From Laetmonice hystrix (Eukaryota), in the NCBI GenBank assembly GCA_965235115.1, contig OZ249436.1, positions 17,734,001-17,798,000 of the forward strand: a DNA stretch of 64,000 nucleotides, read 5' to 3'. The notes beneath the pieces were generated by a model. It had not been told where the DNA came from. It was given only the letters and a program-made list of their open reading frames with translations, and searched no databases. Positions within the stretch are counted from its first letter, which is position 1. Each line of letters opens with the position of its first letter. Positions 12,841-52,742 of the stretch are shown piece by piece. The translations under genes and the position numbers were made by a program.

Positions 12841-13340
12841 CGATACTGGGGGAGAGGTTAGGGTTTGGGACAAGGTTAGAGATTGGGAAACGTTTTCACG
12901 ATATTGGGGGAGAGGTTAGGGTATGGGACAAGGTTAGAGATTGGGAAACGTATTCACGATATTGGGGGAGAGGTTAGGGTCTGGGACAAGGTTAGAGATT
13001 GGGAAACGTTTTCACGATATTGGGGCAGAGGTTAGGGTTTGGGACAAGGTTAGAGATTGGGAAACGTTTTCACGATATTGGGGGAGAGGTTAGGGTATGG
13101 GACAAGGTTAGAGATTGGGAAACGTATTCACGATATTGGGGGAGAGGTTAGGGTCTGGGACAAGGTTAGAGATTGGGAAACGTATTCACGATATTGGGGG
13201 AGAGGTTAGGGTTTGGGACAAGGTTAGAGATTGGGAAACGTTTTCACGATATTGGGGGAGAGGTTAGGGTATGGGACAAGGTTAGAGATTGGGAAACGTT
13301 TTCACGATATTGGGGGAGAGGTTAGGGTATGGGACAAGGT
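12841..13340. repeat. Minisatellite, 58-bp unit, about 8.6 copies, containing GGTTAGGG
   Basis: CGATATTGGGGGAGAGGTTAGGGTATGGGACAAGGTTAGAGATTGGGAAACGTTTTCA repeated. Confidence 0.95.
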
Positions 13341-15620
13341 GAGGGGAGGGGGTGAGTGAGGGGGGAGGGACGATGGTGGGGGAGGGGCTGAGTGAGGGGG
13401 AGGGAGGACGGTGAGGAGAGGGGGTGAGTGAGGGGGAGGGAGGACGGTGAGGGGAGGGGGTGAGTGAGGGGGAGGGAGGACGGTGAGGGGAGGGGGTGAG
13501 TGAGGGGGGAGGACGGTGAGGGGAGGGGGTGTGTGAGGGGGAGGGAGGATGGTGAGGAGAGGGGGTGAGTGAGGGGGGATGGTGAGGAGAGGGGTTGAGT
13601 GAGGGGGGAGGATGGTGAGGAGAGGGGGTGAGTGAGGGGGGAGGATGGTGAGGAGAGGGGTTGAGTGAGGGGGGAGGATGGTGAGGAGAGGGGGTGAGTG
13701 AGGGGGGAGGATGGTGAGGAGAGGGGGTGAGTGAGGGGGGAGGATGGTGAGGGGAGGGGGTGAGTGAGGGGGGATGGTGAGGGGAGGGGGTGAGTGAGGG
13801 GGGGATGGTGAGGGGAGGGGGTGAGTGAGGGGGAGGGAGGACGGTGAGGGGAGGGGGTGAGTGAGGGGGAAGGAGGACGGTAAGGGGAGGGGGTGAGTGA
13901 GGGTGAGGGGACGGGGTGTGTGAGGGGGGGAGGACGGTGAGGGGAGGGGGTGAGTGAGGGGGGATGGTGAGGGGAGGGGGTGAGTGAGGGGGGGATGGTG
14001 AGGAGAGGGGGTGAGTGAGGGGGGAGGATGGTGAGGGGAGGGGGTGAGTGAGGGGGGATGGTGAGGGGAGGGGGTGAGTGAGGGGGGATGGTGAGGGGAG
14101 GGGGTGAGTGAGGGGGGGATGGTGAGGGGAGGGGGTGAGTGAGGGGGGAGGATGGTGAGGGGAGGGGGTGAGTGAGGGGGGATGGTGAGGGGAGGGGGTG
14201 AGTGAGGGGGGGATGGTGAGGGGAGGATGGTGAGGGGAGGGGGTGAGTGAGGGGGGATGGTGAGGGGAGGGGGTGAGTGAGGGGGGGATGGTGAGGGGAG
14301 GGGGTGAGTGAGGGGGATGGTGAGGGGAGGGGGTGAGTGAGGGGGAAGGAGGACGGTAAGGGGAGGGGGTGAGTGAGGGTGAGGGGAGGGGGTGTGTGAG
14401 GGGGAGGGAGGACGGTGAGGAGAGGGGGTGAGTGAGGGGGAAGGAGGACGGTAAGGGGAGGGGGTGAGTGAGGGTGAGGGGAGGGGGTGTGTGAGGGGGA
14501 GGGAGGACGGTGAGGGGAGGGGGTGAGTGAGGGGGGAGGGAGGATGGTGAGGGGAGGGGGTGAGTGAGGGGGAAGGAGGACGGTAAGGGGAGGGGGTGAG
14601 TGAGGGTGAGGGGAGGGGGTGTGTGAGGGGGAGGGAGGACGGTGAGCGGAGGGGGTGAGTGAGGGGGGAGGATGGTGGGTGAGGGGGTGAGTGAGGGGGG
14701 AGGATGGTGGGTGAGGGGGTGGGTGAGGGGGAGGGAGGACGGTGAGGGGAGGGGGTGAGTGAGGGGGATGGTGAGGGGAGGGGGTGAGTGAGGGGGAGGG
14801 AGGGAGGACGGTGAGGAGAGGGGGTGAGTGAGGGGGAGGATGGTGGGTGAGGGGGTGGGTGAGGGGGAGGGAGGACGGTGAGGGGAGGGGGTGAGTGAGG
14901 GGGGATGGTGAGGAGAGGGGTGAGTGAGGGGGAGGGAGGACGGTGAGGAGAGGGGTGAGTAAGGGGGAGGGAGGATGGTGGGGGAGGGGGTGGGTGAGGA
15001 GGAGGGAGGACGGTGAGGGGAGGGGGTGAGTGAGGGGGGATGGTGAGGGGAGGGGGTGAGTGAGGGGGAGGGAGGGAGGACGGTGAGGGGAGGGGGTAAG
15101 TGAAGGGGAGGGAGGACGGTGAGGGGATGGGGTGAGTGAGGGGGAGGGAGGACGGTGAGGGGAGGGGGTGAGTAAGGGGGGATGGGGAGGAGAGGGGTGA
15201 GTGAGGGGGAGGGAGGACGGTGAGGAGAGGGGTGAGTGAGGGGGAGGGAGGATGGTGGGTGAGGGGAGGGGTGAGGGAGGGGGGACGGTGAGGGGAGGGG
15301 GTGGGTGAGGGGGGAGGATGGTGGGTGAGAGGGTGGGTGAGGGTGAGGATGGTGGGTGAGGGGGTGAGTGAGGGGGAGGGAGGACGGTGAGGGGAGGGGT
15401 GAGTGAGGGTGAGTGAGGACGGTGAGGAGAGGGGGTGAGTGAGGGGGAGGGTGGACGGTGAGGGGAGGGGGTGAGTGAGGGGGAGGATGGTGGGCGAGGG
15501 GGTGAGCGAGGGGGAGGGTGGACGGTGGGGGGAGGGGGTGAGTGAGGGGGAGGGAGGACGGTGAGGGGAGGGGGTGAGTGAGGGGGGAGGATGGTGGGTG
15601 AGGGGGTGGGTGAGGGGGGA
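13339..15620. repeat. 2.3-kb G-rich low-complexity satellite
   Basis: Variants of GGTGAGTGAGGGGG(A)GGA(C/T)GGTGAGGGGAGGGG with very few C on the + strand; source of the Pro/His/Ser/Leu/Thr pseudo-ORFs on the minus strand. Confidence 0.95.
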
Positions 15621-25132: not shown

Positions 25133-26069
25133 GACAGGCTGAGATTAACCATGTACGTCAGAGCCTCACTGCCGGCCAGTCGGAGCTCTCTTCATCTCTG
25201 TCAGACATATGAAACAACAAACCTGGTCAGAATCACCACGGAAAACACCGCAAATAATCCAGGAAACCAGTGATTGATACAGTCCGGTTTTAAAAACAGC
25301 AGTCACATGAAGTCGACAAGTCGGGTTTATGGGTAGGTTTTACCCGGGTACTGTTGGCGTTGGCCTCAAGGTCGAGGAATCCCTCGAGTTATGACTGGCT
25401 CACAGATACGGCCTCGGCTTGTAATCTCCATGATGAAGTGCTCACGGATGACGTTCTTGACTACTCACTGAATCACAAACGTCATTTGCAATTTTAGCAA
25501 ATATTTTGCGGTAATGATCGATCAGAATTCTTACAAAACAAAGAAAGCCTTTACTGATAAGGGCAACCTATTACTCCATATCGGGGAAATATCAGGAAAA
25601 GAGGTTTTTAATTTAGAAAAACGTATATAATCACATAACTTTATGGCGGAAGTAATGGTTAAAATTAAATTAGATTCTGTAAAGTAGAGGTAAGCCTAAT
25701 GAGGGGAACTGAAGAAGAGTTTGTATACTAAAGGCAATGATGGGAATCTAAGCAGTGCCCGTATGGTTATGTGAGCCTAATGATAACAATAAAACCAGGA
25801 TCAGCATTCGTGAGATATCAATACGAGTACTCTGTGGGTCATAAGGTCCGGATTATATCGTCTCTGAACTAATCCTCCACTCTAAATGTATAATCCGAGG
25901 GGATAATCTACCAAGGTGACTGCTTGTTGCCGATAGATGGCGTTGACTGTAGCGTGACTGTGGGCCAGCGTACTGCGCTTAGCTCAGCCTCCGTAACCGG
26001 CGGACAGACAATCCTGTCCACATGATTGGTGATTTATATTTGCTTTGTTTAATGGTTTCAGTGTACTTT

Positions 26070-26770
26070 TGAAACCGCGGGATTTTCAAAATGTGTGAAA
26101 ATTTCACGGCGGTTCTAAAGACCGTGGATCACCGACTTAATTGCTGCCTCGTTGCTGCCTTGTTGTCACCTTTCACACCCCTTTAGAACCGCTTAAAGGG
26201 GGATTTTATGAGAAACGTGAAAAATCGGTATTTAAAAGAACTTTTGCTATTTTTATAAAGATATCCTTCATTAAAATTGCTTGCTAAACAAAGACAGACT
26301 TATCAGTTTTATTTTGCGTGAGAAATCAACTTTTATGAAGCTCCCTTGCCCGCTTCTCTGCCAATTTCGTAAAATATTTTTTGGGTGCCATTCTGATGCC
26401 GGACGATCGAGTGCAACTGCTGCACTCAACCTTGCTTCACCCGACTGAACCGCAACACAACTCCCTCTGAACCGTTGTCACAGTGTTGTCACCTTGTTGC
26501 CACCTTTGCTAGCCATTTTAAGCGGTTCTGCCGGGGTGTGAAAGATGAAAACAAGGCAGCAACGAGGAAGCAAGTCGGTGATGCACGGTTTTGAGAACCG
26601 CCGTGAAATTTCATTTTGGAAATCCCGCGGTTTCACGGTGTCTGGGCGATGTCATTGAGGTTCACCACGGGTTTGAGCCGTGCTGAACCGCCCTCAGAAC
26701 CGCCCCCGTGTGAGGCCTGCTCATGGCTAATATAGTGAAGGTGGAAGTAGGTGGCAACAAGGTGACAACT
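26070..26770. mobile_element. Older degenerate palindromic element
   Basis: Imperfect inverted repeat 26070-26197 / 26517-26635; repeated GTTGTCACCTTGTTGCC and GAACCGC motifs continue up to the fold-back insertion site. Confidence 0.55.
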
Positions 26771-26951
26771 AGGTAGCTAGTTATGGAATACCGGTGACGA
26801 AATTCGACTTTCACTTCAACTTACACATACACTTGCACTTCAACTTTCACTTTCACTTCAACTTAGACAAACACTTGCACTTCAACTTTCACTTACACTT
26901 CGGTTTCATCTTTCACTTGCACTTTTACTTAGCCCTTCATCATGTGACTTC

Positions 26952-27060
26952 GGGCCGTATTTTAGAACTATCCTTAAGTTAAAGGATCTCCTTTAGTCTA
27001 TTGCAATTCAATAGACAAAAGGAAATCCTTTGCCTTATGGATGGTTCTAAAATACGGCCC
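26952..27060. mobile_element. 109-bp hairpin MITE (Harbinger/Tourist-type), copy in left arm
   Basis: TIR GGGCCGTATTTTAGAAC...GTTCTAAAATACGGCCC; 3-bp TSD TTC on both sides. Confidence 0.8.
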
Positions 27061-27260
27061 TTCGACTTCGGCATTTACGGAAATGGCCGAGGGCTTCCGA
27101 TGTATTTCTTGCACGCATGCGTACAATATTAAAAGGACAGTTTTGTGACCTAAACTGTCCTTTTAATATTGTACGCATGCGTGCAAGAAATACATCGGAA
27201 GCCCTCGGCCATTTCCGTAAATGCCGAAGTCGAAGGGCCGTATTTTAGAACCATCCTTAA

Positions 27261-29056
27261 GGAGGTATGATCGTCAGAAATGAAAGTATTGCAAAACCTC
27301 TGAAAAGCTTCCTAATTCAACTACTCTAATAGGATAGTCGAAATATGGAAAAAAATATATGTGTCACCATCCTAATTTGGTTTCCATGGCAACATTTATA
27401 TATTCAGGAGTGTAAAAAATGGCAAAATATACATATTTTCGACTTTTCTCATTTCGACACCCAAATATATTTTATTTACATGTTTCTTCTGTCACAAAGT
27501 CATCTAGACACATCAAACTTTAAGACAATATCGATTTGGAGTAGTTTCTACCTGTTTTTATATTTTTCTTGGACCTTTTAAAATTTAAAAATATTAAAAA
27601 ATACGTATTTGTTATGTTAATTTTACATTTTAACAATGTTCTCATATTGTAATATCCCCTATTTTCTTCCTGTGTATAGCCAGGGCTATATTTAAGCAGA
27701 TCGTGAAAAAAAATCACATGGCTACCATGCTAATTTTTGGTATATCACCCTTTTATGTACACACTACCGGGTACCCAAAACAGTAAATTTGGCTCGACTC
27801 TTAATTTATGTATGTAGAGTATTCATTATTTCTTTGAGAGAGCGTTCCAAATGACATATCAAATCAAAGTGAAACGTCTTCCAGTGATTTATAAGCAATT
27901 CCAGTGACGAATAGGCCTATAACTTAGTTAAAAAAAGGTAAAAATATTAAAAATTACAAAATATTTTTAAAATATTAAAAAATGCGATCAGATTTTAATT
28001 TCAGGAGGGATGAGCATCAAAAATATTGTCAAACTTCTAGAAAAAGCTTCCTAAGTTAAGAACTCCAATAATAGAGTCGAAATAAACAAGCATACAACAT
28101 AAGAAATTCTGGACAACGTAGGTGGGGTGTAGGCAGGGCTGTAACCTGCCAAGTGGCCGGGGGGGGGGGCCGGGGGGGGGGGGGGGTTACAAAGTCTTCG
28201 ACCGCATTCGGCACCCTTTGTGTGGCTCCAATAAAGGTCAGATAGGCCTATATAAAAAAAAGTCTATAATTTATTTTTAAGGCTGGGCCCAAGGAGGGTT
28301 ACAGACACCCTGCATTCGGCACCCTTTGTGTGGCTCCAATAAAGGTTAGATAGGCCTATATAAAAAAAAGTCTATAATTTATTTTTAAGGCTGGGCCCAA
28401 GGAGGGTTACAGACACCCTGTAACCACCCCCCCCCCCCGCCTTGGTAGGCCCTCCAGAAGGTCGCCCTATATCTCCCGCCCTCCGAGGCAGAGTGGGAGC
28501 AGAGCGGAGCGGAGGCCGCCACCCGCCCGGCCAGTTGGCCGGTCCTCCCGCTGAGCACCTCCCTGCCTGACACCGTTCCCCCTGACACTCGTGAGTCAGC
28601 CGCGTGTTCCCTCTCGATCGCGTTGTCGTAATCGGATTCAATGCACACTTATGACAAGTTGTATTTGTATATATACCTATAGGCCTATAGTGCATAAAAT
28701 GGCGTTTAAGAGAGAGTGGTGTTCAAATAATGTGATAATCTTCTAATTTTATGGATTTTGCAACCAGTCTTACATGCACTGTCGTAAACTAGCTGTCCGA
28801 ACTGACTGACGGTGCGCAAACATTGCGCAGTGGCCCAAACTACGTGACGATCATACCTCGAAATGAGAAATGTCGAAAATATGTATATTTTGCCATTTTT
28901 TACACTCCTGAATATATAAATGTTGCCATGGAAACCAAATTAGGATGGTGACACATATATTTTTTTCCATATTTCGACTATCCTATTAGAGTAGTTGAAT
29001 TAGGAAGCTTTTCAGAGGTTTTGCAATTTACTTTCATTTCTGACGATCATACCTCC
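27261..29056. mobile_element. Non-autonomous Kolobok-like DNA transposon (1.8 kb)
   Basis: TTAA TSD (27257-27260, 29057-29060). GG...CC termini (RR..YY is Kolobok-type rather than piggyBac). Near-perfect inverted repeats of about 197 bp (27261-27457 / 28858-29056). AT-rich interior with no transposase ORF. Confidence 0.85.
28204..28420. repeat. About 108-bp tandem duplication inside the Kolobok-like element
   Basis: GCATTCGGCACCCTTTGTGTGG...GTTACAGACACCCT x2. Confidence 0.85.
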
Positions 29057-29161
29057 TTAAGGCAAAGGATTTCCTTTTGTCTATTGAATTGCAATAGACT
29101 AAAGGAAATCCTTTAACTTAAGGATAGTTCTAAAATACGGCCCGAAGTCACATGATGAAGG

Positions 29162-29327
29162 CAGGGCCGTAGCCTGGCCCAAATGCGAGGGGGGGGGGGC
29201 AGTAGGCCTGCCAAGTAATAGCGCGTCATTGCGCCGGTCGAGCTGGCCCGGGGTGTGGGTTAAAAAACACAAAAAACTGGAAATCCCAGGGGGGGCAGCT
29301 GCCCCCCCCCCGGAGGCTACGGCCCTG
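29162..29327. mobile_element. 166-bp MITE with CAG termini and 5-bp TSD
   Basis: 14-bp TIR CAGGGCCGTAGCCT / AGGCTACGGCCCTG; TSD GAAGG. The empty site GATGAAGGGCTAAG is preserved in the opposite arm of the host element. Confidence 0.88.
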
Positions 29328-30169
29328 GAAGGGCTAAGTGAAAGTGCAAGTGAAAGGTAAAACCGAAGACAGCGAAGTGTAAGTGAAAGTTGAAGTGCAG
29401 GTGTAGACCTATGTCTAAGTTGAAGTGAAAGTGAAAGTTGAAGTGCAAGTGTATGTGTAAGTTGAAGTGAAAGTCGAATTTCGTCACCGGTATTCCATAG
29501 CTAGTAGATGATACGGAAAAGCACGCATGCTCGTACTCTGGAGACTACGACCCTGCTGGTTAGGAATTGTGGGAAGTCAAATCGACTTGTGCAATCGTAT
29601 CTGAATAGTTCAGCAAAGTAGGTTGCATTTGAACTGTTTCAACTCAAATTTAAATCTTTAAATCTGCCGGCCATGGCAGATGTCCCTATAGTGTCACACG
29701 CCATTAAAGATATTGAGCAGCAGGTATTAATGTGGTATTTTATGTGGGGTACACATCAATAAATAAAATAACAAGAAAATGAAAACTTGTCAGCCGAGCC
29801 CTGTATCCTAACTGTCCCTAATAGAGAGGTTAAACTGTATGACTGGGTTAGACGAACTGTACGAATCCTCTCTCACATACACCGGGGGGTTCCCCCGTCA
29901 GTCGCCTACTGAAAGCCAGAACGATATATTTTAGAGCTCCCATCGCTATGAGACATTCTAGGACTCCTCATCTTATTCGATGTACGGGCCAAGAAGGAAC
30001 AGATCGAGGGGCCCGTTTCACTAACGGTGACATCCCCGCGTGCCACTAAAATGTCCCTCCCCGGCCCATCCAGTGATGAGGGATTTGTCGCCAGGATGTC
30101 CCTAGAACGAGATTGTCGCCGCTCTGGAGCATCTCCCGTTAGTGAAATGGGCCCCTGTGACATAATCAG

Positions 30170-51002: not shown

Positions 51003-51240
51003 GTGGGTGTTGTTAGTGTAAGCATTTCCGCAGAGCTGTCAGTGGCGTATTCCTACTCGACACTACGGCGCAGTTGGATTTCAAAATGGTGGGGATGTTG
51101 GGTTAACCAACGTTAGGCACTTGTCAAAACGTCAAACGCATTTCTTGCAAAATATTCAGATTGCTCACCGCAATAGATGCAATTCTTAGACTAGCCTATG
51201 TGCCATGCAGTGTCCTGATATAATGGTTTTGATGTTGCAG
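51003..51240 (+). other. mex3 intron (238 bp, GT-AG, phase 1)
   Basis: GTGGGT start and TTGCAG end; removal joins the two halves of KH1 in frame at GRQG|CKIK. Confidence 0.93.
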
Positions 51241-52742
51241 GGTGTAAAATCAAGGCATTGAGGGCGAAAACCAACACGTACATCAAGACGCCCGTACGAG
51301 GCGAAGAGCCGGTGTTTGTTGTGACGGGGCGTAAAGAAGACGTGGGGGCCGCCAAACGGGAGATTCTGTCGGCCGCCGAGCATTTCAGCCAGATACGGGC
51401 CAGTCGCCGTAATAACAACACCAACGGGTCTGCTGGTTCGCTAGCCCCCGGCCCGCCTAGCCCCAACGCCCCGGGCCAGGTGACCATTCAGGTGCGGGTA
51501 CCGTACCGCGTGGTCGGGCTGGTTGTCGGTCCCAAGGGCGCCACAATCAAACGAATCCAACAACAGACGCGCACCTACATCGTGACACCGAGTCGGGACA
51601 AGGAGCCTGTGTTTGAAGTTACGGGCACGCCGGAAAATGTGGAGAAGGCACGTCAAGAAATTGAAAGTCACATTGCGTTGCGGACAGGGGGCATGGTGGA
51701 GGCCAACAATGGGATGGCCGGGGGGTCAGTGCCCCCTACCCCCGGACCGCACACCCCAGCGGATGACGACTTTCACAATAATGGGGTGGAGTCTGGGTTT
51801 CACGATTTAAGCAACGACATGATGGCATCAATGTACAAGCCTCCAAGTTCTAACTCCGCCTTTACCTCCTATAACAGTGCACTCAACACAAGCAATAACC
51901 TATTGTCTCACGCACACCATGGAAACCACCACAATCGTACACAGCATGCAGACAGCCACACCCCAAATATCTTCAACTTCCCAGCCATAGCACCCAATGC
52001 CAATACAAATGGATCAGCCAAAATCTCAGACTATGCGCCAACACTCACTAATGGCTTCAGCAATGGCTTCGGATTGTACGACAACGATGAAGGTATCGCC
52101 TCGCCAAGTTTTGATGCCGGTCACATGTCTGTATGGCAGGATATGGGTTCGGGTGACCATTGCAAGATGGGAAATGGCAGTCAAATTTTGTTTAATCCAG
52201 CTCACTCCAGTGTGGTGGCCACGTCTGGTGGTTGTGCTCCACGACGATGCAGCAGCATCAGTAGCAGTACCACGCCCAGGTTGTCGCCAACTCTCACTGA
52301 TTCCTCTAGCAATGCTCCGGTAGGTTCCCCGGGCAGCGGGGCGGTCACTCCTGGAAGTGACCATTCAACAGTACGTCGCATTAGGAGTGATCCCCTGTCC
52401 GGCGGACTTTCAGCAATGACCTTTGCACCCCTTTCGAATGGTGTACTGGGAAACAACCCTGGCTCTGCGTTTACCATCACTACTACCTCGAGTGGCAGTC
52501 TCTCTAGCAGCAACAACAGTACTTCCAGTAGTCCGACCGACTCAACCGGATCTGCGAACGCCAACCGAAGACGGCATTGCCTGATGTGCAACGACAGTGG
52601 CGTGGTGGCAGCTCTGGTACCCTGTGGCCACAACTTGTTCTGTATGGATTGTGCCAATCTGATTGTGGACAAGCCTGAAGCTGACCGCCGCTGCCCTGTC
52701 TGCCAGCAAACCCCGACTCAGGCAATCCGTATATTTTCTTAA
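51241..52742 (+). CDS. mex3: mex3 coding exon 2 (rest of KH1, KH2, low-complexity linker, C-terminal C3HC4 RING)
   Basis: Acceptor GTTGCAG| at 51240. Splicing restores G-C-K-I-K-A-L-R-A-K-T-N-T-Y-I-K-T-P. KH2 reads VTIQVRVPYRVVGLVVGPKGATIKRIQQ; RING reads CLMC...PCGHNLFCMDC...CPVC; stop TAA at 52740-52742. Spliced CDS is 1743 nt, 580 aa. Confidence 0.97.

Follow-up and report, generated by a model that had tools for sequence, protein, structure and literature searches.

Accounts of mariner MITEs in Drosophila describe seven sublineages, Dromar7ere and Dromar11eug among them, where one of the element's ends replaces the other and long TIRs result, and they term the route of this rearrangement elusive (PMC4161770); two further end-replacement sublineages, Rpmar49 and Rpmar17, are described from Rhodnius (PMC4678618). 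TIR extension is also reported for Galileo of Drosophila mojavensis (PMC3573991). Outside transposons, human fold-back junctions are described as retaining a native spacer of at least 766 bp, mostly with inverted homology, and fusions of sister chromatids (U-type) as spacer-less (PMC3907307). Among the literature matches listed, none is a direct precedent for an insertion present in both TIRs of one element, and such a case may still have been reported.

We analysed an element of this form in a 64,000-nucleotide stretch of the Laetmonice hystrix genome (the window, to which all coordinates refer), where a palindromic transposon carries the same 109-bp MITE in both arms. As far as the mariner accounts go, it resembles the end-replacement MITEs in being a non-autonomous derivative in which one end would have replaced the other, with unusually long TIRs made from non-TIR sequence. 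It differs from them in its TA..TA ends and 6-bp duplication, which belong to another superfamily, in arms that meet at an 8-nt spacer, and in its passenger MITE; the mariner MITEs are, moreover, described as amplified sublineages, whereas no copies of the window element's form were seen in contigs, which show presence and not absence. With Galileo, as described, it shares the inverted repetition at one end of sequence from inside the other TIR, as well as subterminal repeat arrays, but Galileo is a member of the P superfamily and its family TIRs are already long, whereas the shared TIR here is probably about 41 bp. To a fold-back or U-type sister fusion, in turn, it would be akin in that one broken end was copied and joined head-to-head; unlike the human fold-back junctions described, it has a short, non-native spacer, which places it closer to the U-type, and its product is bounded by transposon ends. 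We consider it the best reading, with a probability of roughly 0.6, that a transposon end with the MITE already in it was duplicated head-to-head in a one-off event and gave rise to both arms.

Results

Layout of the palindromic element

The outer element (26782–29499) starts with TATGG and ends with CCATA, giving TA..TA termini, and is non-coding, the longest stop-to-stop frame over 26700–29600 being 133 aa. A 6-bp direct duplication, GCTAGT, lies on both sides of it (26776–26781 and 29500–29505, forward strand), as read at one insertion site only, and the flanking DNA has no mirror symmetry. The left arm (26782–27143, forward strand) consists of the TATGG terminus, an ACTT hexamer array (26807–26930), the MITE and an 83-bp inner part, and corresponds to an end of a transposon family, end A, as represented by high-depth contigs over 26782–27002 and 27033–27144. 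Its outermost 41 bp (26782–26822) are common to a second, different terminus in the contigs and are likely the true TIR of the parent family. Beyond a central spacer of 8 nt (27144–27151), the right arm lies on the reverse strand, its inner part (27152–27234) identical to the left arm at 83 of 83 positions and its outer part (29333–29499) carrying two small inserts (29364–29377 and 29404–29411) and the CCATA terminus. A long inverted arm of 362 bp holding an internal hexamer array is a foldback-type feature.

Elements of this sort are classed by their ends and target-site duplication (PMC4455052), and TA..TA termini with a 6-bp duplication are given for IS3EU/GingerRoot (PMC10045372). Both features are present in the outer element, which is IS3EU-like as a label by ends alone, with no transposase here. 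There are also hAT elements with 6-bp duplications, and the outer element may be a hAT instead. No further copies of its terminus or of the MITE were seen elsewhere in the 64-kb window, and Rfam gave 0 matches over 26000–29700; matches to the 18-nt terminus at 11 metagenome loci were all dropped as chance, none of them aligning over more than 28 bases to the element.

The window is repeat-rich animal DNA with a CpG observed/expected ratio of 0.71 and many minisatellites; one among its many tandem arrays is a purine-rich minisatellite of 2.3 kb with strong G skew (13331–15619). A 507-aa open frame at 51219–52739 has two KH-type matches and a C3HC4 RING in the order KH-KH-RING, and we take it to be MEX-3-like. 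The left neighbour of the outer element (26070–26777) is a repeat with nested inverted parts, 26070–26197 pairing with 26517–26635 (85%) and 26485–26505 with 26749–26769; contigs have loose ends behind 26774, so that the palindromic element appears to have inserted right at this repeat's edge.

The MITE and its mirrored copy

The left MITE copy (26952–27060, forward strand) is a 109-bp hairpin with GGGCC termini, bordered by TTC at 26949–26951 and 27061–27063. The right copy, on the reverse strand, is bordered by GAA at 27232–27234 and 29144–29146 and is split into two pieces (27235–27260 and 29061–29143) by a TTAA-flanked element, so that the stretch 26952–27260 takes in only 26 bp of it. The sequence-only reading had placed the MITE and its TTC duplication at mirror positions in the two arms, and its coordinates are correct, both 27060+27235 and 27143+27152 being 54295. 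The MITE lies 83 bp from the centre in each arm. Its distance to the terminus is 170 bp in the left arm and 185 bp in the right, where the two small inserts account for the extra 15 bp. When the right copy is rejoined and compared without gaps, it matches the left at 107/109 positions in mirror orientation versus 96/109 in direct orientation; of the 15 positions that distinguish the MITE from its own reverse complement, 13 have the left copy's base when the right copy is mirrored and 2 when it is read directly.

The 109-bp element is short and non-coding and has TIRs and a target-site duplication, as a MITE should; the window has 4 occurrences of its 17-nt terminus (0.14 expected), and its fold has a predicted energy of -40.7 kcal/mol (z = -12.75), with none of 200 shuffles as stable. 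Its short hairpin, GG..CC ends and 3-bp duplication are like those of PIF/Harbinger-type (Tourist-like) MITEs. The PIF/Harbinger duplication is usually TWA. The TTC found here departs from this, no partner transposase was seen, and Zator fits equally; target duplications are given as 3 bp for Zator and as none or 1–4 bp for the PHIS group (PMC10045372).

Later insertions in the right arm

The element that splits the right MITE copy (27261–29056, 1.8 kb) is non-coding, with TIRs of ~197 bp and GG..CC ends, and is Kolobok-like in having both the TTAA duplication and the RR..YY termini described for that group (PMC9587614), with no transposase seen. Inside it lie a third, degenerate copy of its end (28000–28084, 72%), a 15-nt end-like copy (28845–28859) and, between G and C runs, a 108-bp tandem pair (28204–28420) that is probably another nested insertion. 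A second element, of 166 bp (29162–29327), has CAG..CTG ends and the 5-bp duplication GAAGG and is presumably hAT-like. The 6-nt insert at 29404–29411 sits at a TA site of the arm, giving TA-GACC-TA, one letter off the TAGGCCTA palindrome, which has 18 occurrences in the window; the 9-nt insert at 29364–29377, in which a 5-mer is repeated with 4 letters between, may be a scar left by an element that makes 5-bp duplications. The right arm took all four of these later hits and the left arm none, numbers too few for significance. The mirror, the target-site duplications and this nesting order can all be read directly from the window.

The MITE is mobile elsewhere and part of a family end here

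Contigs were taken from three public runs (X1, X2 and X3) of one sample in one study, which are not mutually independent and may be the window's own source. Contigs collapse variants, and a hairpin centre may drop out in assembly; they show presence, not absence. At 82% likeness to 26640–27170, the three runs gave 181, 161 and 142 records, from which 24 pieces (of 24 + 467) and 18 loose ends (of 18 + 139) were listed.

The MITE had been taken for an insertion independent of the palindromic family, and it does occur outside it. Among the 24 pieces listed, at least 11, of at least four distinct kinds by their ends and differences, place it at unrelated sites; these pieces end at 26952 or 27061–27062 and continue with 61–883 unlike letters, at depths of 14–57 and with 86–94% identity to the window copy. 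As to the 3-bp duplication of these other copies, several alignments reach one or two T past the MITE end; that of the window copy is TTC. An empty site is present in one diverged contig (~80% identity) found in all three runs (depth 62, 36 and 45), which reads from the letters upstream of the site through a single TTC into the inner arm, its short side comprising only 22 letters.

In the family itself, a contig at depth 1705 in X2 and 886 in X3 has its first base precisely at terminus 26782 and extends through the junction with the MITE to 27002, with four letters other than the window's; the inner junction (27033–27144) is bridged by a contig of depth 1574. In X1 the counterparts, at depth 2031 and 2022, leave both junctions unbridged, the one ending at 26953 and the other beginning at 27064. 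Low-depth contigs among those listed have depths of 14–62, and the arm contigs reach 30–40 times their median, which is rough only. On this evidence the MITE belongs to the end that the family shares, roughly in some tens of copies, and its insertion is old and family-wide. The X1 family contig also has a 10-nt deletion at 26868 (26868–26877), absent from X2 and X3, which suggests two common alleles of end A at this place.

With the MITE already present in the high-depth family contig, the mirror follows from whatever event duplicates that end, and alone it says little. The mirrored MITE had been offered as direct evidence on how the arms of such elements form or homogenise, a claim that these contigs do not support.

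A probable second end and a centre that is not the family's

The high-depth family contig runs 22 letters beyond 27144; these letters have no occurrence in the window, and depth over 27144–27161 is about what one base of the family contig would give. A family contig that continues past 27144, together with this low depth, indicates that the centre of the window copy is not the family's. The contigs leave 27162–27170 without cover, contain no spacer and leave the centre junction bare in all three runs, which is a hole and no proof of absence. The native spacer expected of a fold-back duplication was not found: beyond its first base the 8-nt spacer departs from the family contig, although later trimming is possible. 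Snap-back synthesis with a native loop, one of the proposed origins, thus finds no match here, the spacer not being the family's continuation. A scar at TA, like that of the right-arm insert, was rejected as a source of the spacer, the family having no TA at this position.

In all three runs a loose end behind 26822 leads from the same 41 bp into a different version of the hexamer array, and so represents another terminus. In the three runs the first terminal bin has a summed depth 4.27, 4.11 and 4.04 times that of the arm. A single type of end predicts 2 times, about half of what is observed, if junction contigs overlap each end by 30 bases (an assumption taken from 31-letter words). A post hoc model with a second end, end B, gives depth ratios of 1.09, 1.02 and 1.03 (about 1:1) and reproduces the next two bins, where summed contig depth is no copy number and the same overlap is assumed. 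The basis of the fit is one sample in three runs, and an equally abundant sister family would yield an identical pattern; among these contigs neither a second whole copy nor an end B joined to end A was seen. The simplest account would be that normal copies are A-B and the window copy A-A, and the depth favours a short shared TIR (~41 bp) over long TIRs as the likely normal form of the family.

The strongest competitor, which we nevertheless hold only tentatively, is a true foldback family with long TIRs, in which the founder's MITE was copied to both TIRs by arm-to-arm conversion and the window copy lost its centre by symmetric deletion. Two long identical TIRs would indeed give one contig path through the whole arm and past 27144, as seen, and stem-loop trimming could yield symmetric ends. 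For such a family, however, the terminus should be about 2 times as deep as the arm, against the 4.0–4.3 times seen, so that an equally abundant sister family would be required by chance; a second copying event is also needed to place the derived base described below in both arms.

Shared and private changes in the arms

Removal of the later insertions leaves 7 substitutions and two inserts (6 and 9 nt) between the arms: the outer 170 bp hold 5 substitutions and both inserts, the MITE 2 substitutions, and the inner 83 bp none. At 26979 (forward strand; mirror base 29116) both arms have T, where G is found in all contigs that cover it (16, 15 and 13 in the three runs), with zero depth left for T. 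This G pairs with C27033 in the hairpin, and together with the contigs this makes T26979 derived; a derived base common to both arms implies that they came from one template younger than the family consensus. T26979 could itself be a hidden or minority subfamily allele, since contigs collapse variants, as the 10-nt deletion seen in X1 and not in X2 or X3 illustrates.

Compared with the family contig over 26782–27002, the left arm has three private substitutions (26870, 26926 and 26988), the right arm three (26875, 26907 and 26909) and two inserts, and one substitution is shared; the difference at 27038 is probably left-derived, judging from hairpin symmetry. Homogenisation after the duplication was not seen, and the arms appear to have retained their private changes. 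Short conversion tracts may lie in the stretches in which the arms are free of differences, 26782–26869 and 27039–27143 (P about 0.13 for the latter).

Of the two origins suggested by the sequence-only reading, construction from a single transposon end fits better; ongoing arm-to-arm conversion is not seen, 7 substitutions and 2 small inserts having been kept. Its view that one insertion was later copied, rather than two made, holds up, given arm copies that are 98% alike, the shared derived base and a family contig with the MITE.

Proposed origin of the mirror

Under the one-end duplication that we prefer, the MITE would have entered an IS3EU-like element a single time, at a TTC lying ~170 bp inside its end A; the element would then have multiplied to some tens of copies, normal copies having end A and a different end B with only ~41 bp in common. 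One copy would have broken ~363 bp inside end A and become linked to a replica of itself, a few filler bases between, through either a replicated hairpin or a fusion of sister chromatids. The transposase may then have taken the two A termini as one unit and inserted it, generating the 6-bp duplication; such a move accounts for both the unmirrored flanks and the direct duplication. The arms would since have aged separately, the right one gaining two insertions and two small scars.

About two thirds of the probability that we give to one-end duplication falls on this joining of a broken end, the rest on repair in place. The broken-end join is favoured because the arm ends agree within one base relative to the family contig and because the spacer does not continue the native sequence; ectopic repair, or a deletion between neighbouring copies, involves break points that are independent and would seldom coincide so closely (by our estimate ~1 in 100 or less). 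The same agreement of the arm ends, the non-native 8-nt filler, the shared derived base and the nested MITE as marker also point, as a possibility that we rate well below even, to a palindromic element that arose within a transposon, through true replication of a hairpin or fusion of sister chromatids, and was rescued by the transposase.

Repair in place, a variant within the one-end duplication and not an addition to it, is unlikely. It supposes that end B of an inserted A-B copy was replaced by repair that was primed in the shared 41-bp TIR and copied end A, the old 6-bp duplication being kept. A mechanism of this kind is proposed for Galileo, where it gives TIR1-F1-F1-TIR2, in the account of that element (PMC3573991); it needs no second transposition and leaves the flanks unmirrored. 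Its break points would be independent, however, yet the arm ends are no more than 1 base apart and none of the family's next 22 letters are in the spacer, a coincidence with estimated odds near 1 in 100 or less for a range of 300–1000 bp, unless the centre was trimmed later.

That two MITEs independently chose the same site in each arm is scarcely credible even for an independent mobile family with strict target choice, given 20 TTC/GAA sites in the 250 bp of the empty arm, independent copies that are 86–94% like the window copy versus 98% between the arm copies with their shared derived base, other copies in unlike flanks and a family contig that already has the MITE. Equally improbable is an artefact of assembly or library (a fold-back read or chimera), to which the centre junction without contig cover might point, but against which stand the 7 substitutions and 2 small inserts that separate the arms, two transposon insertions, each flanked by a target duplication of its own, a direct 6-bp duplication that bounds the whole element, and unmirrored flanks.

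Discussion

In its layers the locus records nested transpositions and a probable single end duplication. One old MITE insertion followed by a one-off duplication of the end is the likely history, and the duplication itself is a rearrangement already known from mariner and Galileo. An insertion common to both arms is not by itself a sign of gene conversion. Wider weight could come to the locus only from its symmetric joint, if that joint represents a recurring route to palindromic elements. Should the proposed origin be true, and should symmetric A-A or B-B joints recur in this and other families of the genome, they would open to counting one route by which hairpin MITEs and foldback elements form.
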